A DNA stretch of 30,786 nt from IMG/VR virus record IMGVR_UViG_3300021335_000008. One strand, 5' to 3'. Below are positions 2,585-19,116 of this stretch, piece by piece (the first letter of the stretch is position 1; each line of letters opens with the position of its first letter). The DNA comes from an uncultured virus (IMG/VR IMGVR_UViG_3300021335_000008). Taxonomy: Duplodnaviria > Heunggongvirae > Uroviricota > Caudoviricetes > Demerecviridae. A program made the translations under genes and the position numbers. The notes under the pieces are model-generated. The model searched no databases. It was given only the letters and a program-made list of their open reading frames with translations, and was not told where the DNA came from.

Positions 2585-3343
2585 TTAATTCTCCAAAAAA
2601 GATTTGAGATCGGTAACTATAGTTACGCCAGTATCTCTGGCTTGTCTAGTTTTTGCGGATTCATTTCCGCCCTCGTTAATGAGGTGTGTGACTTGCTTGG
2701 TTAAACTGGATTTTACATCATATCCAGCTGCGTTCAAGGCTGTAGTAGCTTCGGCTTTAGACTTGAAACTCTTCAATCTACCACTAATACATACAATACC
2801 TTTACTCGCAACAGGCAGGGAGGGCGTATCAGAAAAGTACCAACATGAAGGAAGGTGCTCTTGAAAATACGGCAACTCGTTGTCTATCCATTCAAGCAAG
2901 TTAGCTGTAGCCTTTGGGCCTAAACCGGCACGCTCACAAGTGTCTGCGTTAATTTGAGAAATATGATTAATAGTCTCAGACAGCTTCCGTGTTGCCGTGT
3001 TTCCAATCAAGGGTATGCCAAAGGCAGGCAAAAGGCGCTCAAGCGGAGCATCGAACGAATTCAATATCTCCGACATGAGCTTTGTTGTCACTTTTTCAGA
3101 ACCCAACGATGCTAAGATACTCTCCTCCGTAGAGGTGTAAATTTCGGACGGGCACGTCCAACCAAGTCTACGAATAGATGCAGGGCCGAGACCCTTGATC
3201 TTCATAGTCTTGGCAAAATGTTCCACGACCTTATACTGTTGCTCACCACAAGTGGCAGAGCGGCAGTAAAGTAAATCATTCTCCCATACCAAGGTACTGT
3301 CACAAGAAGGACAATTGGTAGGGGGTAAGATTTCGTGAAACAT
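2585..3343 (-). CDS. ligB: NAD-dependent DNA ligase subunit B (Zn finger, HhH, BRCT)
   Basis: PTNCPSC zinc finger, IKGLG and GIPLIG HhH motifs, C-terminal BRCT (CISG...VTHLI). Confidence 0.9.
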   Translation of the reverse strand: MFHEILPPTNCPSCDSTLVWENDLLYCRSATCGEQQYKVVEHFAKTMKIKGLGPASIRRLGWTCPSEIYTSTEESILASLGSEKVTTKLMSEILNSFDAPLERLLPAFGIPLIGNTATRKLSETINHISQINADTCERAGLGPKATANLLEWIDNELPYFQEHLPSCWYFSDTPSLPVASKGIVCISGRLKSFKSKAEATTALNAAGYDVKSSLTKQVTHLINEGGNESAKTRQARDTGVTIVTDLKSFLEN

Positions 3344-3369
3344 GGACTACTCCGAATTAGTGAAAAGAT

Positions 3370-3399
3370 ATTATACGACAGATTTGACCTGAATGTCAA
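3370..3399 (-). promoter_or_regulatory. sigma70-type promoter between ligA and ligB
   Basis: TTGACA-18-TATAAT; the -35 overlaps the ligA stop codon. Confidence 0.7.
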
Positions 3400-4340
3400 G
3401 AACTATTTTTCTCGATGTCCACTCGTCTCACGATTCGTGGAATGATCTCACCGCTACGTATAACTTCAACTTGGCAACCTATTTCTAGGCCAAGAGAGCG
3501 AATGTACTCAATGTTGTGTAGAGTTGCGCGGCTCACTAGCGCATCTCCCACTTCGACTGGGCGTAAGATAGCAACCGGGCTCACAACCCCTGATTTGCCT
3601 ACCTGCCACACAACATCGAGTAATTCTGTAATAACCCCATCCTTCTGCTCTTTAAGAGCGAAAGCCCCTCGGGGGTGATGAGCTGTATATCCCAGTTTGT
3701 AAAAGGCTTCATAGTTATCTACTCTAAACACCTCGCCATCTGTTGGGAAAGCGGATGCATCGAAGTGAGTGATAACCTCAAAGCCATTCCTGGCCAAATG
3801 GTTCATTGCATCAGAAAGACGCTCATACTTAGCTCCTTGAATATCGTATGCGACAAACTTGAGAGTCTGTGCGCGAGAACGAAACTCGTTATGGTCTTTC
3901 AGATTGAGCGACCCCGCTGCAAAGTTGCGAGCATTTGGGATCATATCGGGCGCTACGACCTCACCGGTAATCTGGATTTCTCCTTTGATACCGATGACAT
4001 TTGGCACTAGCTCTTCCATCTTCAACGTGATATCACGACCAATCTGGCCGTCTCCCCTAGTTAAAGCCTGTGCTAGATGGCCGTTGACATATTGCAACGA
4101 CACTGCCGCCCCATCCAGTTTCGGTGTACGCACCATAGGTGACGTACCGGACTCTATGTCATTTAGATTAAAAACCTTCTGTAGAGAGTACATACGATAC
4201 ATATGAGGAATGCCATCAGTTACCTGATAACCGACCTCTTCGTATCTGTACTTTCGTGCCAGTGCATCAAACTCTTCATCCGAAAGAATCGGATTACCGT
4301 TGTAATACATTGCCGAAGCCTTTTCCAAAAAATGATGCAT
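3396..4340 (-). CDS. ligA: NAD-dependent DNA ligase subunit A (adenylation and OB domains)
   Basis: YY..P..SDEEFD, KLDG active site, TRGDG, RNFAAGSL, ATLHN and RSGEIIPRI motifs. Confidence 0.95.
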   Translation of the reverse strand: MHHFLEKASAMYYNGNPILSDEEFDALARKYRYEEVGYQVTDGIPHMYRMYSLQKVFNLNDIESGTSPMVRTPKLDGAAVSLQYVNGHLAQALTRGDGQIGRDITLKMEELVPNVIGIKGEIQITGEVVAPDMIPNARNFAAGSLNLKDHNEFRSRAQTLKFVAYDIQGAKYERLSDAMNHLARNGFEVITHFDASAFPTDGEVFRVDNYEAFYKLGYTAHHPRGAFALKEQKDGVITELLDVVWQVGKSGVVSPVAILRPVEVGDALVSRATLHNIEYIRSLGLEIGCQVEVIRSGEIIPRIVRRVDIEKNSS

Positions 4341-8895: not shown

Positions 8896-8924
8896 ATTAT
8901 ACTCGCTATGAGATTAAATGTCAA
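8896..8924 (-). promoter_or_regulatory. sigma70 promoter, probably giving a leaderless mRNA
   Basis: TTGACA-17-TATAAT, ATG only 6 nt downstream. Confidence 0.8.
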
Positions 8925-9496
8925 GAATTTTCTCGTAGCTTGTTGAGTATAAATGCCGGAGCCGTAAACATATAAGGATCTTTGTCGTGATTATCCTCGC
9001 GGCCTTCTTCGATGAACCAGTCAACAATGTGTCCATTGTCAACAACTGCTGCATATCTCCAAGATCGTCGACCAAACCCCAGATTGTCTTTGTCCACGAT
9101 CATTTGCATTTCTTCTGTAAATTTACCACTACCGTCAGGAATTACTTGTACGTGCTCGAGGTTTTGGTCGTGTGCCCAAGCATTACATACAAACGCATCG
9201 TTTACTGTAATACAGTAGATTGCGTCGATTCCTAACTCAAAAAACTCTGGTGCAAGTTTTTCAAAGTCAGGTAGCTGGTAGGTGGAACAGGTTGGCGTGA
9301 AAGCGCCTGGCAGGGAGAAGATAAGTACTCGCTCTCCTGCAAAAAGATCCCATGTAGTTACGGGCAACCACTCAAAAGTTCCTTCATTGAGAACTCGAGT
9401 GTGAAACGTAGTTGAGGGAATCATGTCTGGTAGTGAACGCCAGTAGCCTTTTTCTTCGTACTGATCGCGTTCGTGTTCTGTGCAATAAATAGCCAT
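8921..9496 (-). CDS. peroxiredoxin (Prx5/redoxin family)
   Basis: PGAFTPTCS peroxidatic motif, VNDAFV, GFGRRSWRY. Confidence 0.95.
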   Translation of the reverse strand: MAIYCTEHERDQYEEKGYWRSLPDMIPSTTFHTRVLNEGTFEWLPVTTWDLFAGERVLIFSLPGAFTPTCSTYQLPDFEKLAPEFFELGIDAIYCITVNDAFVCNAWAHDQNLEHVQVIPDGSGKFTEEMQMIVDKDNLGFGRRSWRYAAVVDNGHIVDWFIEEGREDNHDKDPYMFTAPAFILNKLRENS

Positions 9497-10066
9497 TTAT
9501 GCCTCGCTGTAAGTTAAGTTTAAATTTGCGTGATGTTGTTCATCGCGTCGAACGTACTTAATCATATCAGACAGCTTTGCTTCTGGAAGTAGATCATAGT
9601 AGTCAATCGCGATTTGTGGTGCAGGTACGTCTTGTATACGGCCTGCGTCAATTTCCCCAAGGTAATCGGTGTAGCTTTTTACAGCTTCTTCTTCAAAGTA
9701 ATGTATCATAAGATGTGCAGTTTTAGGTGCAATGAGATACAATACTAAATAGTAGTGCCAGAATATTAATTGTGCCAGTACGATGAGACCCCGCTCCAGC
9801 TTTGTAGGTTGCACTACTTCTATGAAAAACATGAGATGCTTACGTTCGTTTTCAGCTTCTGCAAGCATCTCATGAATTTTACTGCCTTGTCCTTTCTTTA
9901 GCCCGCGAAGGCTTGAAAGGTGTGTGAGCATTCCAGCAACCATCCCAGGCACGCCTGCAACAGTTTCTAGAACTATAGCTCTATGACCATACCGCTTACG
10001 AAAGAACATATCGGCAGTAAACCGAAAGAACTTTGTCATAGATTTTGCTACAATTTTATTAGACAT
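9497..10066 (-). CDS. aox: alternative oxidase (di-iron carboxylate)
   Basis: LETVAGVPGMV, EAENERKHL, EEEAV.SY and RRDE..H iron-binding motifs. Confidence 0.92.
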   Translation of the reverse strand: MSNKIVAKSMTKFFRFTADMFFRKRYGHRAIVLETVAGVPGMVAGMLTHLSSLRGLKKGQGSKIHEMLAEAENERKHLMFFIEVVQPTKLERGLIVLAQLIFWHYYLVLYLIAPKTAHLMIHYFEEEAVKSYTDYLGEIDAGRIQDVPAPQIAIDYYDLLPEAKLSDMIKYVRRDEQHHANLNLTYSEA

Positions 10067-11562: not shown

Positions 11563-11740
11563 GGTAAGAAACAATAACGTAGAGAGCGCACTGCGTGTGT
11601 TTAAAAAGAAATGCGCTGACATCGTGTGGGAGTATAGACAGCGTGAGCACTATGTTCCCAAATCAGAACAACGGCGGTTAGCTAAAAAAGCCGCCATCGC
11701 TAGAGGTAAGAGGAAGAAAAATGATACCAAGCAATTTTGA
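11549..11740 (+). CDS. rpsU: ribosomal protein bS21 homologue
   Basis: MPKVKVR.NNVESALRVFKKKC.....EYRQREHY.PKSEQRR.AKKAA.AR matches bS21. Confidence 0.9.
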   Translation: MPKVKVRNNNVESALRVFKKKCADIVWEYRQREHYVPKSEQRRLAKKAAIARGKRKKNDTKQF

Positions 11741-12104
11741 ACTTGCAGGCGATTTCATGGAAGCCTTTGGTCAGGAAGTACAAGTTCACCCGACTTGGCC
11801 TGACTTTAGTACTCGTGAGCTACGCCTTGAGTTGATTCGAGAAGAATATGAAGAACTGGAAGAAGCTATTGAAAATCGTGACCTCGTGGAGGTTGCCGAC
11901 GCTCTTACAGATTTGTTATACGTTATCTATGGGGCTGGTCATGCATTTGGCATTGACCTTGATGAATGTTATCTTGAAGTTCACCGGAGTAATATGAGTA
12001 AGCTCGGTGAAGATGGCAGACCTATCAAAAGAGAAGACGGCAAAGTTATCAAGGGGCCAAACTTTTTTGAACCAAACTTAAAAGATATTCTAGTAGAAGC
12101 CTAA
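11721..12104 (+). CDS. MazG-like / PRA-PH NTP pyrophosphohydrolase
   Basis: LIREEYEEL, EVADALTDLLYV, VHRSNMSK, DGKVIKGPNF motifs. Confidence 0.85.
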   Translation: MIPSNFELAGDFMEAFGQEVQVHPTWPDFSTRELRLELIREEYEELEEAIENRDLVEVADALTDLLYVIYGAGHAFGIDLDECYLEVHRSNMSKLGEDGRPIKREDGKVIKGPNFFEPNLKDILVEA

Positions 12105-12105
12105 T

Positions 12106-12246
12106 ATGGATATAGGTCTACTCGGATTGCTCGCAATCTTTATGTGTCCAATGGTATTTGGTGGAATCACCATGTACTATTCACACGAAGCTATACACAA
12201 ACAAACCGTCGAGAGGTGGAAAAAGCAATGTACTCAGATAAAGTAA
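12106..12246 (+). CDS. small membrane protein (46 aa)
   Basis: MDIGLLGLLAIFMCPMVFGG... fills the gap before iscU. Confidence 0.5.
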   Translation: MDIGLLGLLAIFMCPMVFGGITMYYSHEAIHKQTVERWKKQCTQIK

Positions 12247-12602
12247 TTGATCACTATGAAAATCCTCGCAATGTTGGAAAGATGAATAGAGAGGATAAGG
12301 ATGTTGGTACAGGTATGGTGGGAGCACCTGCCTGTGGTGATGTCATGCAACTCCAGATAAGAGTGGAGGATGGAATCATTGAAGACGCGAAGTTTAAAAC
12401 TTACGGCTGTGGGAGTGCTATTGCTTCTAGTTCTTTACTCACCGAGTGGGTCAAAGGAAAAAGTCTTGAAGAAGCCGGGCGAATCAGTAATACAGACATC
12501 GCACGAGAACTTACACTACCTCCAGTAAAAATACATTGTAGTGTACTGGCAGAAGATGCTATAAAGGCAGCAATTGAAGATTATAATAAAAAGGGAGCAT
12601 GA
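12228..12602 (+). CDS. iscU: Fe-S cluster scaffold IscU
   Basis: YSDKVIDHYENPRNVG, GAPACGD, TYGCGSA and LPPVKIHC motifs. Confidence 0.97.
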   Translation: MYSDKVIDHYENPRNVGKMNREDKDVGTGMVGAPACGDVMQLQIRVEDGIIEDAKFKTYGCGSAIASSSLLTEWVKGKSLEEAGRISNTDIARELTLPPVKIHCSVLAEDAIKAAIEDYNKKGA

Positions 12603-13600: not shown

Positions 13601-13939
13601 TCAAACACCTGCCCACTCCTTCATAATTGCTACGGTGAGCATAAACCAGCTAACCGTGTTTAACATAATCAGTGCTCGGTCTCTCCAAATCACTGATACC
13701 CAAATCCATAGAACTATACCGATCCAGCCCAAGTAAAGGTCATACATTCGGTACTCTACACCAGCTGCACGCATCATCAACGATGCCATCACAAACATAC
13801 TGGCTACCCACTTTAGATACCACTGAAAATCCTCAGTATACCAATTTCTATCCGGCTTTGAAACGCCCATAGCACGAACCATGGGATTTCCAACGCCTTT
13901 ATTTCCTTCATTTTTCAACTTCACTCTCCAATAATACAC
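13601..13939 (-). CDS. membrane protein with about three TM helices
   Basis: WYLKWVAS...W.WVS..WRDRALIMLN hydrophobic segments; start codon uncertain. Confidence 0.65.
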   Translation of the reverse strand: MYYWRVKLKNEGNKGVGNPMVRAMGVSKPDRNWYTEDFQWYLKWVASMFVMASLMMRAAGVEYRMYDLYLGWIGIVLWIWVSVIWRDRALIMLNTVSWFMLTVAIMKEWAGV

Positions 13940-14039
13940 TTTTTTTCGTGCAAGTCATCCCGTTCTCTAACTTTCAACTATATACCTACGCATAAAAATG
14001 TCTTTTCTTATGCCAAAAAGTGTGGTAAAATATATCATA

Positions 14040-14290
14040 AATTGATAGACAATAAGGTCTATTCGTACTTTCCACCAACCAACAGCGTAGGAAGTATCGT
14101 TGTAGTAATTACTGCGTTTAGAGTTGAAGGCGTTAGCCTTTCCACTCGATACCCAGTATATTACAAATAGCTACTTTCAAGCTGTATTCAATCCCACTTC
14201 TAATTGACTAACAATCATGGTGTCAATTACGACCAACTAAAGTGACCCCGATAATCAAATAACAATAATACGGGTTCACAACATTTAAAC
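14040..14290 (+). ncRNA. candidate structured ncRNA (six consecutive hairpins)
   Basis: ORF-free interval with back-to-back stems; G-U pairs fit the + strand; extended -10 TGgTAAAAT at 14023-14031. Confidence 0.5.
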
Positions 14291-14372
14291 TACTTTACTA
14301 AAAATTCGTCTCACTTTCGTACAATTCTGTCCGCTTCGCGATTGTTAAAACCCCGTAAAAGTACGTACAAAT

Positions 14373-14519
14373 CTAAAGTAATTTTCTTCTAATTCCTTCA
14401 AATATCATGTAAAAGGGATAGATTATCGCCCCTAGAGCTGCAATTCCTGCTAGTACTAAGAACATACCAGCCATACCCCAGACGAGCCACATTGCTATCG
14501 TAGGAAGTATATCAATCAC
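14373..14519 (-). CDS. small membrane protein (48 aa)
   Basis: GTG start overlapping the upstream gene; long hydrophobic stretch followed by RRK. Confidence 0.55.
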   Translation of the reverse strand: MIDILPTIAMWLVWGMAGMFLVLAGIAALGAIIYPFYMIFEGIRRKLL

Positions 14520-14709
14520 GTTGTGACCCCGCTACTGCTTTTCGCCAAGCAATGGTGAATTGCTCTTCCGCTTTACTACTTGCAAAATGTATAGTATTTG
14601 TGTAGGGATCTAATCTACAGGGAACGTCTTCTAATTCACAGATCGCAGCAGCACGTCCAAACAACGGGGTCGATGCAAATTGTGTACTTGGCCCGTAGTA
14701 TTCCATCAC
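14512..14709 (-). CDS. hypothetical protein
   Basis: GGAGG SD; coupled to the upstream gene. Confidence 0.6.
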   Translation of the reverse strand: MMEYYGPSTQFASTPLFGRAAAICELEDVPCRLDPYTNTIHFASSKAEEQFTIAWRKAVAGSQRD

Positions 14710-15050: not shown

Positions 15051-15222
15051 TCTTGTGCTTCCTCTTTCTGTTGTATTTAGTTTTGTCTTGGTGTACGGAT
15101 GGACGATTGAAATTGTACTTCGCCACGGGGTTGGCAGCGAGTCGCTCACACTGCCCATTACAGTACCATACATCTAGTACTGCATTAAACTCTTTCCCGC
15201 ACTTTCTACACTTCCGTTTCAT
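15034..15222 (-). CDS. small Cys-motif basic protein
   Basis: CRKC...CNGQC; C-terminal H.DKTKYNRKRKHK. Confidence 0.55.
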   Translation of the reverse strand: MKRKCRKCGKEFNAVLDVWYCNGQCERLAANPVAKYNFNRPSVHQDKTKYNRKRKHKNVELY

Positions 15223-15511
15223 CTTCCTCACTCCAAGGGGTAAATATAATATCTCCTGAATCTACATCGACACCAATGCCAGATGAGTAATCTAGGTATC
15301 CTACTTCTACGTTTTCTACTCCGCCTAAAGCGTGCGCGTATCGACGTAAATAGATATTGTACTCTGCTTCAAGTGTAGCAGCTTTTTCTTCTATTTTATC
15401 AACGAGTGCAAACGCTTTGTTTAAATTTTCATACAGCTCATCCAGCTCTGCCTTTCTTTCGTCAAGCTGATTCTGTATGGACTTATCTTCTGGAAATTTC
15501 AATATACTCAT
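15206..15511 (-). CDS. coiled-coil hypothetical protein
   Basis: GGAG SD; follows the promoter at 15536-15564. Confidence 0.65.
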   Translation of the reverse strand: MSILKFPEDKSIQNQLDERKAELDELYENLNKAFALVDKIEEKAATLEAEYNIYLRRYAHALGGVENVEVGYLDYSSGIGVDVDSGDIIFTPWSEEDETEV

Positions 15512-15535
15512 GTACTTTCTCCCATTTGAGTAATA

Positions 15536-15564
15536 ATTATACAGGTTCTGAGAAAAAATGTCAA
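15536..15564 (-). promoter_or_regulatory. sigma70 promoter
   Basis: TTGACA-17-TATAAT. Confidence 0.8.
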
Positions 15565-15589
15565 GATATTTTTTAGGTGAGGTAGGCAT

Positions 15590-15612
15590 AAAAAAGCCCG
15601 TATAAAACGGGC
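15590..15612 (-). terminator. intrinsic terminator
   Basis: GCCCGT-TTTAT-ACGGGC-TTTTTT. Confidence 0.8.
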
Positions 15613-15814
15613 AACGGACTTGCTATGTCGAATAAGTGTGGAAGCCCCAACCATGCTCTACCCACTGTCCGCAACAAGGATCTGTTTTCGAGCCAATCCT
15701 AAAAACGCACGCATACACTCATTACACCGGATAGTATGAACGGCGACGCAGCGTAGTTAGTAAAAGTTAGAGCAAATCGGCTCGTTTTATTACTACTATA
15801 GCCCGCGATTTAAG
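15590..15814 (-). ncRNA. candidate structured ncRNA of about 225 nt
   Basis: Bounded by its own promoter and terminator, no credible ORF, several long G-U-containing stems. Confidence 0.6.
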
Positions 15815-15819
15815 TAGAT

Positions 15820-15849
15820 ATTATACTCGCTGTGAGCATCAAAAGTCAA
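15820..15849 (-). promoter_or_regulatory. sigma70 promoter of the candidate ncRNA
   Basis: TTGACT-18-TATAAT. Confidence 0.75.
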
Positions 15850-16034
15850 GAATTATTTTTCGCAACTTCTGAAATGGTTTCCCAGCGTTTGTGTCCAGTA
15901 TCGTAGGAATTGTACTCTATAACCAACGCATCCGAGTTCATATGTAGAACTGGAGCGGGGTCTAAGCGTGCTCTGCTAAAGTGCAAAGCAATTCGGTTAG
16001 ATACTGTCTTCGGGTCGTCTTGTAGGGCACACAT
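15846..16034 (-). CDS. hypothetical protein
   Basis: Start moved to MCALQ, which has a GGAG/AAGGA SD. Confidence 0.5.
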   Translation of the reverse strand: MCALQDDPKTVSNRIALHFSRARLDPAPVLHMNSDALVIEYNSYDTGHKRWETISEVAKNNS

Positions 16035-16209
16035 AGATATCCTTCTCCTCCCAGGTGATGTCGAATCCTTTTCCATGAATAGGGCGTCGTGCATATATTC
16101 GTCCTCCTTGTGTAGCTTCCATCACTACATCGCATTTACCCCAGCCGGGGTTTTCCCATAAAAATACATCAAGGTGATGCCGTAAACTGTCTACTGATAC
16201 TCTCACCAA
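15997..16209 (-). CDS. hypothetical protein
   Basis: ORF track; coupled to the upstream gene. Confidence 0.55.
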   Translation of the reverse strand: MVRVSVDSLRHHLDVFLWENPGWGKCDVVMEATQGGRIYARRPIHGKGFDITWEEKDIYVCPTRRPEDSI

Positions 16210-17356: not shown

Positions 17357-17390
17357 GTTGATTTTTTGGTACAATTGCCCTAAATTGTAC

Positions 17391-17659
17391 TTGACATCGT
17401 CGGTGTACTACTGTATAATCGGCGCCGCCAACCGAGACCCGGCTTTTTGTGAATTTTTACCAATTGTGCAAATTTCCCTTGACATCGAAGGTTTACTACT
17501 GTATAATTGGCGCGCCGGCGCCAAAAGACCTGTTGGTTTCAAAAAATTTTCGTCCATTGCCGCAAAAAAGACTTGACAATCGTCGCACTACTACTTATAA
17601 TGGCGCGAGGTACCCTAAAGAAAATCGTCGTCGTACTACTACTGGCGCGGCGGCGCCAA
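17391..17659 (+). repeat. array of three consensus sigma70 promoter repeats plus one degenerate copy
   Basis: TTGACA-17-TATAAT at 17391, 17479 and 17573; shared TCG...TACTACT spacer and GGCGC after the -10. Confidence 0.8.
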
Positions 17660-17687
17660 AATCTGGATGTCAACCCAGATTTTGACG

Positions 17688-18458: not shown

Positions 18459-18935
18459 TTAAGCTCCTAGGCTTTCGTTGATTTCAAGTGAATTGTGGCA
18501 TACAAGGCCGTTGTTTGTCAAGCATTCAATGACATTTTTATTGTCATCAAACATGATTGCAGTCTTGCAGAATCGACGCCAGCTCATGCCGTTGTCAGCG
18601 GCGTAGCGCTTGAGGCCGCGCAGTTTGAATAAATCATCGGGCGTTGTGTCGCCTTCCTTGCGAGAGATGATGGTCTCAGCAAACAGGCCGCGAGAGCCGA
18701 AATAAAAGTAGTCAGCCGGACCCATAACGCGAGCAGTGCAAACAATAATTTTTGCGTTTGGCTTGCGTTGAATCTTGCGCCATTCGTGAGCGAGAGGCAG
18801 AAGCGTATCTCTCTCAATAAATTTGGCGGTTGAATGTTCGCGCCAGTGCGCGAGGTTGATTGAACCATCGGGGCTCGTTAAAGCGCGATGGGATGAATCG
18901 ACGACCGTATGGTCAAGGTCAAAAATAAAGTGCAT
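18459..18935 (-). CDS. dmp: deoxynucleoside-5'-monophosphatase (HAD superfamily), T5 Dmp-like
   Basis: FDLDHTVVDSSHR, DTLLPL, CTARVM..DY.Y and FDD motifs match T5 Dmp. Confidence 0.85.
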   Translation of the reverse strand: MHFIFDLDHTVVDSSHRALTSPDGSINLAHWREHSTAKFIERDTLLPLAHEWRKIQRKPNAKIIVCTARVMGPADYFYFGSRGLFAETIISRKEGDTTPDDLFKLRGLKRYAADNGMSWRRFCKTAIMFDDNKNVIECLTNNGLVCHNSLEINESLGA

Positions 18936-19116
18936 AGATATATCCTCCAATGCCGACAATGTTAAGTAAGATCAGATTATAGCATTTATTAGCCGTGGCT
19001 TGCAATGTTAATAATACCAATCCGAGAATCGCAATCATCTTACCGGCGTCGGTGTCGATGATGAAGGGCGCTAACATCATGCAAAGCGCCCCAGCCCAAG
19101 CGCAGAAGCCGATCAT
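18919..19116 (-). CDS. small multi-TM membrane protein
   Basis: Hydrophobic 65-aa ORF; ATGA coupling. Confidence 0.65.
   Translation of the reverse strand: MIGFCAWAGALCMMLAPFIIDTDAGKMIAILGLVLLTLQATANKCYNLILLNIVGIGGYIYALYF

Follow-up and report, generated by a model that had tools for sequence, protein, structure and literature searches.

A new pseudoknotted RNA family with its own promoter and terminator in uncultured marine and estuarine T5-like phages

Large lytic coliphages carry orphan stable RNAs, such as RNAs C and D of T4 and the stable non-tRNA RNAs reported for T5. T5-like phages are known for strong early promoters and for an RNA-based counter-defence that works through transfer RNAs (tRNAs). 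The put RNAs of phage HK022, which consist of two hairpins, are antiterminators, and the pRNA of phi29 is an Rfam family. Among riboswitches, the SAM-II and preQ1-II aptamers are built on H-type pseudoknots. Complex pseudoknotted RNAs with constant unpaired nucleotides have, in past cases, been riboswitches, ribozymes or specific protein-binding RNAs. Here, we describe an RNA on the minus strand of a 30,786-nucleotide (nt) stretch of DNA (hereafter the window) from an uncultured virus of the Demerecviridae (IMG/VR record IMGVR_UViG_3300021335_000008). An initial annotation, made from the letters of the window, had proposed a stand-alone structured RNA at 15590-15849. Comparison with its relatives indicates that the RNA represents a new, well-supported family whose fold is pseudoknotted and whose known range is narrow. 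What is new is the RNA family and its fold, whereas non-coding RNA genes of phages are, as a broad category, familiar.

We collected relatives from viral and metagenome contigs. An IMG/VR search guided by both neighbouring proteins yielded six contigs, and a scan with a pattern of the P5 loop (described below) added a seventh, more divergent one, L017. Running a P5-loop-type pattern on metagenome contigs, we obtained 72 loci, 54 of which a covariance model accepts as family members. The other 18 lack both promoters; the model misses 16 of them and gives two weak matches of ~20 bits. A second pattern, built on the P4 module and independent of the P5 loop, recovered the seven IMG/VR contigs and two new ones (L109 and L112). 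Overall, the collection comprises 43 distinct sequences from promoter to terminator. All of them stem from contigs of uncultured T5-like phages of marine or estuarine origin, with one copy of the RNA per contig.

The alignment of these sequences defines a conserved fold. RNA position 1 corresponds to window position 15816, so that a window coordinate equals 15817 minus the RNA position; every element lies on the minus strand. In the 5' domain (15807-15747), helix P1 (CGCGG/CUGCG; RNA 10-14 with 66-70, window 15807-15803 with 15751-15747) encloses a variable P2 arm (RNA 15-65, window 15802-15752). Two helices then interleave, S1 (CGCCG/CGGUG; RNA 72-76 with 88-92, window 15745-15741 with 15729-15725) and S2 (CAUAC/GUAUG; RNA 79-83 with 101-105, window 15738-15734 with 15716-15712), forming an H-type pseudoknot (15712-15745). 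A conserved junction, CGUGCGUUUUU (RNA 106-116, window 15711-15701), leads into hairpin P4 (RNA 117-140, window 15700-15677), where AGGAU (15700-15696) pairs with AUCCU (15681-15677) around a conserved 14-nt loop, UGGCUCGAAAACAG (15695-15682). The linker between P4 and P5 ends in GGAC (RNA 147-150, window 15670-15667), which is present in every variant seen. Hairpin P5 (15665-15638) is composed of P5a (GUGGG/UCCAC; RNA 152-156 with 175-179), an internal UAG and P5b (RNA 160-174), in which AGC/GCU surrounds a 9-nt loop, AUGGUUGGG (15654-15646). The tail ACUUAUU (RNA 180-186, window 15637-15631) is the 3' limit of the conserved core; its invariance is partly by construction, as it formed part of one search pattern. 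The GCCCG/CGGGC stem of a terminator follows at RNA 205-221.

Covariation supports this fold. The initial annotation had suggested collecting homologues and checking them for covariation, and five helices do covary strongly. Across 18 distinct insert-free sequences, 98.5% of the cells in S1, S2, P4, P5a and P5b were paired, compared with 38-55% when the 3' partners were slid by one to three columns. Compensatory changes on both sides occurred at 11 of the 23 pairs, and 0 of 500 column shuffles matched the observed pairing or covariation score. By alignment count, S1 was 100% and S2 94.4% paired in these sequences, both with compensatory changes. In the insert-bearing variants, the covariance-model alignment mispairs S2 with an inserted hairpin, and S2 was therefore counted on insert-free sequences and by script. 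The script found 14 distinct S2 helices in the 43 variants, their only flaw being one internal mismatch in two types; S1 occurs as five distinct helices in the 43 variants, every one fully paired.

Over 34 distinct rows, S1, P4 and P5 together were 97.4% paired. All five pairs of P4 were 100% paired, three of them with compensatory changes, while P5a and P5b reached 99.4% and 100%, respectively, with four covarying pairs. For helix P1, an anchor-based script distinguished 12 arm pairs, in which 57 of 60 cells are paired; four of the five positions show compensatory pair types, and 0 of 1000 shuffles were as good. Several helices are rich in G-U pairs, which at one position of P5a, for example, occur in 24 of 34 rows; this assigns the fold to the minus-strand transcript and not to the DNA or the opposite strand. 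The stems covary around loops and linkers of constant sequence. For a find from a single window, the comparative evidence is unusually clean, with 43 variants, six covarying helices including that of the terminator, and modular variants.

The fold is not the one first drawn from the window. The single sequence has an ordinary folding energy (-67.1 kcal/mol, z = -1.22), matched or surpassed in stability by 23 of 200 shuffles. The helices that do exceed chance are different ones (helix P1 with the P2 arm, S1/S2, P4 and P5), and none of the four in the initial annotation is among them. Together, those four were 67.0% paired across 39 relatives versus 66.4% in column shuffles, and 55 of 500 shuffles reached the observed value. 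One of them, an 11-bp stem (15774-15784 with 15689-15699), is complementary at 11 of 11 positions, three of them G-U, and the minimum-free-energy fold contains it, which explains why it was seen. It shows no compensatory change. Its 5' arm falls within the expendable P2 arm and is for that reason missing in 14 of 39 sequences, while the letters drawn as its 3' arm actually form the 5' strand and loop of P4. Closure of a second domain by GCGGAC/GUCCGU makes six pairs in the window but is not conserved, GUCCGU being missing in several sub-families and in L017. A 7-bp pseudoknot, UGCUCUA/UAGAGCA, was tested over its six inner pairs, as the seventh (U-A) shares a base with the 11-bp stem; it is complementary in the window but not conserved among relatives. 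Pairing of the 5' GCGGGC with the terminator arm (GCGGGC/GCCCGU) again gives six pairs in the window, but only 60% pairing in relatives, without compensatory change.

Further contacts were considered within the conserved fold. Three loop and junction positions switch jointly, being G,G,C in 18 and A,A,A in 16 of the 34 rows. Considering four junction and P4-loop positions (window 15710, 15709, 15694 and 15684; A7 columns 102, 103, 114 and 124), the joint switch is between G,U,G,C (17 of 31 distinct 3' domains) and A,G,A,A (14 of 31). Such joint switching points to a tertiary contact, a base triple for instance, or else to two lineages of the module. The P5 loop, GGUUG(GGG), is complementary to YARCY in the internal loop of the long P2 arm, and the observed changes are all wobble-compatible. 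Such a pairing is possible on this sequence evidence; the loop partner is constant, and variants with a short P2 arm do not have the site. Other pairings were tried and rejected. A second pseudoknot of GUUUU with AAAAC of the P4 loop was 74% paired and disrupted in 16 of 34 rows, and pseudoknot loop 3 with the ACUUAUU tail was 70.2% paired versus 68.7% in shuffles. In a closing helix of UYAAAU at the 5' side with AUUYGA at the 3' side, inspection showed that a U/C change gives A-C mismatches in about half of the variants.

The RNA is built from modules that vary between lineages. The P2 arm measures 17-62 nt, the shortest form being a 17-nt mini-hairpin. Of 33 distinct cores, 14 have an extra hairpin of 25-30 nt inserted after S2 and just ahead of the junction, with a covarying stem and a loop of approximately ACGAUA; it is missing in the window. 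One variant, found on three contigs (L037, 1195-1404 on the minus strand, and the identical L041 and L052), carries the P4-GGAC-P5 module in tandem. The junction is duplicated too, and the second copy has GGUUUAC instead of GGAC. Domains have also been recombined between lineages; L004, for instance, combines one pseudoknot type with another 3' module. In the nine IMG/VR contigs of the loop-independent scan, the P5 loop is AUGGUUGGG in seven, and AUGGAGGG and AUGGCGGG in L109 and L112. These alternative loops give a consensus of AUGG(UU/A/C)GGG, and the invariance seen elsewhere is thus partly an effect of the search pattern.

The known range of the family is narrow. Neither the element nor its two neighbour genes gave a blastn or tblastn match among 50,697 phage records. 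In five whole genomes of cultured Demerecviridae (Aeromonas phage AhP_Mru1, Escherichia phage DT57C of the genus Tequintavirus, and the Vibrio phages 70E37-4, Pylo and JSF10), the covariance model found no significant match (best E = 0.47), with a loose prefilter that may miss weak matches. Searching 185,579 prokaryotic species, one genome each, with two exact patterns, we obtained 0 matches for one pattern and three chance matches for the other, which the covariance model scores at ~10 bits. By these searches, the RNA is restricted to this clade of marine and estuarine T5-like phages.

The RNA is framed by transcription signals of its own, and here the initial annotation was borne out in full. 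Promoter P1 (15849-15820) consists of TTGACT (-35, 15849-15844), an 18-nt spacer and TATAAT (-10, 15825-15820), matching the sigma-70 consensus at 11 of 12 positions. An A-rich tract lies upstream of it, and its -35 box overlaps the stop codon of an upstream gene of 82 amino acids (16094-15846). This promoter is almost invariant across the alignments and was found in 57 of 62 family loci, the remaining five being truncated at contig ends. The intrinsic terminator (15612-15590) has a GCCCG/CGGGC stem (15612-15596), extended to GCCCG(U)/(A)CGGGC, a loop of 5-7 nt and a U6 run to 15590. It begins only ~18 nt past the conserved 3' tail. Its stem covaries (GCCCAC/GUGGGC, GCCCGA/UCGGGC, GCCUGC/GCAGGC), and it is kept in 41 of 43 variants; L017 is without it, and L090 is truncated at the contig end. 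Putting the start ~7 nt past the -10 box and the end at the U-run, we predict a transcript of ~224 nt (15813-15590), in agreement with the ~225 nt proposed earlier. Across the family, the RNA gene measures about 205-225 nt. Judging from its near-consensus sigma-70 promoter, it is presumably transcribed by the host RNA polymerase, early and strongly.

Between promoter P1 and the terminator, no open reading frame (ORF) has a Shine-Dalgarno (SD) sequence; there are only ORFs of 31-34 codons starting from GTG or TTG. The RNA thus has what a stand-alone small-RNA gene should have: its own promoter, its own intrinsic terminator and no conserved ORF. This part of the original proposal holds with one exception among the 43 variants, since in L017 the RNA runs into the ribosome-binding site of the downstream gene. 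A separate promoter P2 (15564-15536, minus strand; TTGACA-17-TATAAT), a 12/12 match, stands in front of that gene, which we call gene X. Of the 62 family loci, 59 have it downstream of the terminator and ahead of gene X, which makes gene X independent of promoter P1; L017 truly has none, and L080 and L090 stop short of it. A conserved C-rich box, CCUACCUCACC (15576-15586, minus strand), lies between the terminator U-run and an A-rich tract upstream of promoter P2. The box resembles an anti-SD sequence. Its pairing with the P5 loop was also tried and rejected, being a perfect 7 bp in L109 only and inconsistent in other variants.

Since a promoter-RNA-terminator unit is followed by a separate consensus promoter, we read the RNA as a stand-alone early RNA. 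In the explanation that we prefer, with a probability of roughly 40%, it would act in trans by binding a macromolecular partner, most likely a protein, through its constant unpaired elements. The reading as a binding scaffold comes from the constant loops on covarying stems, the expendable P2 arm, the optional hairpin and the duplicable 3' module. The host RNA polymerase would read promoter P1, and the intrinsic terminator would end the transcript. The RNA would then fold into a compact scaffold, with helix P1 closing the expendable P2 arm, the S1/S2 pseudoknot, and hairpins P4 and P5. This scaffold would display three conserved single-stranded elements, namely the P4 loop UGGCUCGAAAACAG, the GGAC linker and the G-rich P5 loop AUGG(UU/A/C)GGG. 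The displayed elements would bind a host or phage protein, and the RNA would act as a decoy or as a component of a ribonucleoprotein. We infer the transcription, its timing, the transcript ends, the action in trans and the nature of the partner. At ~165-220 nt, the RNA can be synthesised, and its fold is testable and predicts clearly what mutations should do.

The constant P5 loop contains an AUG, and we asked how the RNA fares as a coding sequence. A conserved translated small ORF, named in the initial annotation as what would speak against an RNA gene, was not found: of the ORFs of at least 20 codons, none is shared in position among the variants and none has an SD. The ORF that starts at the loop AUG has 8-9 codons, MVGA[SP][TV]LI (MVGASTLI among its forms), in 19 of 41 variants. 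In other variants, it runs for 26-62 codons in differing frames, as its UGA was lost by a U-to-C change. A 1-nt deletion shifts its frame in three variants, and the 8-nt loops do so in L109 and L112. Changes in its codons 5-6 are mirrored on the opposite strand of P5, which places the constraint at the RNA level. The weak matches to the Trp_leader model (23-27 bits) span the loop stretch and the terminator and would be in line with a leader peptide. These matches to the Trp operon leader family (RF00513; 23.1-26.6 bits in the window and seven relatives) fall far under its gathering score of 41 bits, and the alignment rests on GGUUGG and the terminator. Its hallmarks, tandem Trp codons and downstream trp biosynthesis genes, are absent; the loop-AUG ORF is without Trp codons, and the downstream gene is without a Pfam family. 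The scatter in ORF length from 8 to 62 codons with out-of-frame tails, the frame-shifts and the absence of an SD all disfavour this reading. That the RNA encodes a small peptide, from this or another micro-ORF, with conservation at the protein level, seems to us next to negligible.

A conserved single-stranded loop could also serve as a seed. A base-pairing small RNA would use the P5 loop or another constant single strand against host or phage messenger RNAs, and its terminator hairpin and U-tail would be a chaperone-binding module. The AU-rich stretch and the terminator with its U-run at the 3' end would suit such an RNA. However, five covarying helices and a pseudoknot exceed the needs of a seed-bearing small RNA, and a loop whose length varies (UU, A or C) in two of nine contigs would break a fixed seed. 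A duplex scan of the two loops, run against both strands of the window, gave the antisense of the element and no further target that stood out. We therefore regard a role in base-pairing as quite unlikely.

By its size, its pseudoknot and its strictly conserved unpaired nucleotides, the RNA resembles small ribozymes as well. Nevertheless, a self-cleaving or otherwise catalytic RNA of a new class would be a very improbable outcome. No known ribozyme model matches. The order of the pseudoknot strands (S1-5', S2-5', S1-3', S2-3') leaves only 4 nt between S2-5' and S1-3' and thus no room for the P3 hairpin of a fold like that of the hepatitis delta virus ribozyme. There is also no repeated or processing context, such as tRNA genes, of which the window has 0.

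Gene X (15511-15206, minus strand) starts with ATG at 15511, ends with a stop codon at 15206-15208, has a good SD, GGGAGAAAG, and encodes 101 amino acids. It follows the RNA in the same orientation in every locus that has downstream sequence, giving 38 distinct complete X proteins, while the gene upstream of the RNA differs in some lineages. The X proteins are hypervariable, 25-93% identical to that of the window, and match no Pfam or PHROG family. In a structural model (predicted local distance difference test score 80), the 53-residue helix of X is accompanied by a short helix and two short strands, after which comes an acidic tail modelled with low confidence. A search of the Atlas returned only unnamed viral clusters, with scores of ~0.8. 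The protein is acidic, and its almost invariant residues are hydrophobic or acidic; X thus does not look like an RNA-binding protein. The locus L078, with an RNA identical to that of the window, has an X allele of only 59% identity, and L077, with an identical core, one of 34%. The RNA has thus been kept while its neighbour was exchanged, and X behaves as an exchangeable cassette. These sequences point to a recombination joint in the segment from the terminator to promoter P2 and to a diversifying pressure on X. A cassette of an RNA and a hypervariable gene may mark a locus of host-phage conflict.

The constant position in front of gene X raises the question of whether the RNA is a leader that regulates X in cis, as a riboswitch or attenuator does. 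In that case, the core would sense a ligand or protein, the terminator (or the SD in L017) would be the expression platform, and X would be reached from promoter P1 in one state only. The sensor that a riboswitch has, a structured domain with covarying helices, is present here, and its pseudoknot and constant junctions and loops are aptamer-like. The RNA always lies directly upstream of X and co-oriented with it, and the terminator stands just past the conserved tail. The tandem 3' module of L037 recalls tandem aptamers. In L017 (441-659, minus strand), 8 nt separate the core from the SD and start codon of an X of 25% identity, with neither terminator nor promoter P2 in between; from the sequence, the CCUCC of the P5 3' arm could pair with this SD. 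Against these points stand the 12/12 consensus promoter between the terminator and X in 59 of 62 loci and the lack of a conserved antiterminator by inspection, which was not exhaustive. As said above, the 5' GCGGGC pairs with the terminator arm in 60% of cases without compensatory change; the P5 loop forms just 4 bp with that arm. X is not a metabolic or transport gene, and the riboswitch models of Rfam give no match. We consider regulation of this kind unlikely.

Sequence contigs from RNA libraries bear on both transcription and the terminator. Parts of the stretch are held in 14 runs recorded as RNA, and contigs from four of these were compared. A contig from a salt-marsh metatranscriptome (X1) covers 15477-15777 with one mismatch and bridges the terminator and promoter P2, while a contig of another study (X7) covers 15645-15795 with 0 mismatches. 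These data are consistent with transcription of the RNA.

A contig that runs from the RNA across the terminator into X would also be expected from a put-like RNA, which would bind its own polymerase while nascent and let transcription from promoter P1 pass the terminators in cis. This is a weak point in favour, as the contig could be DNA. The layout fits, with a strong promoter, a structured RNA encoded between it and an intrinsic terminator, and an operon, and in L017 the RNA is retained upstream of the same operon even though there is no terminator. On the other hand, promoter P2 already transcribes the operon. The five-helix core of ~165 nt is far more complex than the two put hairpins, and there is no similarity to any Rfam family, a collection that may or may not include a put model. 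Antitermination of this type is, in our estimate, improbable, to about the same degree as a base-pairing role.

Several observations weigh against our preferred explanation of a trans-acting, partner-binding RNA. The model and composition of X make it unlikely that X itself is the RNA-binding partner. The linkage of RNA and X is unbroken wherever downstream sequence exists, even with a different upstream gene, which favours a role in cis. So does L017, where the RNA is the direct 5' leader of X without terminator or promoter P2; it is the only one of 43 variants to lie in a 5' untranslated region with no intervening promoter. The clade of the relatives is narrow, and the pattern that yielded 54 of them fixes the P5 loop, inflating its apparent invariance. 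The RNA-library contigs also cover flanking genes, carry no information on strand, ends or level, and may stem from DNA carry-over. A more far-reaching possibility, which we hold to be doubtful, is that of a new functional RNA class with a sophisticated role in infection. The RNA would then be a ligand- or polymerase-sensing cis element, of a new riboswitch or put-like class, that gates early transcription into a hypervariable gene of the arms-race type, or else a decoy that neutralises a host defence or RNA-processing protein. Such a decoy, encoded among small promoter-driven genes of the early region, would take on the counter-defence role that tRNA genes reportedly have in cultured T5-like phages.

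The window itself comes from a distant T5-like (Demerecviridae-like) phage. By PHROG matches, its genes include those for a D5-like regulator, a DnaB-like helicase and an NAD-dependent DNA ligase that is split. Its ligase reaches at most 47% identity among 1,227 matching phage records, the best matches being T5-like phages of Aeromonas, Klebsiella, Salmonella and Vibrio. The region of ~10.9-19.7 kb is a series of small minus-strand genes, dense in consensus sigma-70 promoters. Promoter-like sites number 38 versus 22.2 +/- 4.4 expected, and 12 of them score 11-12 of 12.

Other features of the window were noted on the side. The split ligase is present as in T5, and there are auxiliary-type genes for a peroxiredoxin, a MazG-like pyrophosphatase, a NifU-like protein and a polynucleotide-kinase-like protein; the ligase and these genes jointly occupy 2585-4340 (minus), 8921-9496 (minus), 11721-12602 (plus) and 18459-18959 (minus). 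An Aeromonas T5-like phage has a cluster of more than 20 tRNA genes 15-20 kb from its ligase, compared with 0 tRNA genes in this 30.8-kb window. On the plus strand at 17382-17661, three consensus sigma-70 promoters stand in tandem (17391-17419, 17479-17507 and 17573-17601), each followed within ~10-60 nt by a GC-rich palindrome (TGGCGCGCCGGCGCCAAAA at 17508-17526; TGGCGCGGCGGCGCCAAAA at 17643-17661). These sites may be further tiny transcription units or regulatory sites. A minus-strand stretch of ~570 nt (13940-14511), between a DUF6552 gene (13601-13939) and a minus-strand gene (14512-14709), has no ORF of at least 60 amino acids and no Rfam match.

The RNA matches no described family. The initial annotation had set it apart from tRNA, transfer-messenger RNA (tmRNA), 6S RNA, signal recognition particle RNA and ribozymes and thought of a new class, and the Rfam comparison that it proposed agrees: Rfam 15 (4227 models) gave 0 matches at the gathering threshold in the whole window. 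At relaxed thresholds (E of at most 10 for the region 15300-16150 and of at most 5 for ten diverse relatives), there were only sub-threshold matches at chance level. ARAGORN finds 0 tRNA or tmRNA genes in the window. The 5' end of the RNA, GGGCUAUAG, resembles the start of a tRNA-Ala; this tRNA-likeness was rejected, since ARAGORN finds nothing there.

We found no description of such an RNA in T5-like phages in the literature. In a survey of IMG/VR, Fremin, Bhatt and Kyrpides (2023; PMC10690425) arrived at 10,006 predicted candidates for structured RNAs, from the same data source of viral contigs and with the same kind of evidence, covariation. Our motif could be among these candidates. Within the supplement of that survey, neither the loop motif, in RNA or DNA spelling, nor two of the contig sample numbers occur in files 3, 5 and 6, and six sample numbers are absent from file 4, the alignment archives (files 1 and 2) lying outside this search.

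How, then, does the locus compare with the systems named at the outset? With SAM-II- and preQ1-II-type aptamers, it shares the H-type pseudoknot, the covarying stems, the constant loop and junction nucleotides, and a position upstream of a gene, followed by an intrinsic terminator (or an SD in L017). Unlike them, it matches no Rfam model up to E 10 and is much larger, with a five-helix core of ~165 nt. A consensus promoter precedes the gene in 59 of 62 loci, the proposed antiterminator is not conserved, and the downstream gene encodes a small acidic coiled-coil protein. The put RNAs of HK022 are likewise structured RNAs directly after a strong early promoter and before terminators, but no similarity to them was detected, and the present architecture is more complex. 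Like the pRNA of phi29, the RNA is phage-encoded and structured, falls into the range of ~120-220 nt, has its own strong early promoter and would act as RNA. It differs in having no Rfam match and in lying among early genes of a T5-like genome, not among packaging genes. Compared by general description only, RNAs C and D of T4 and the stable RNAs of T5 differ from it in that the present RNA was not found in five cultured Demerecviridae, including DT57C, and that its window has no tRNA genes. What it has in common with them is that they are small, non-coding, phage-encoded RNAs, made by the host polymerase as separate units among early or tRNA genes.

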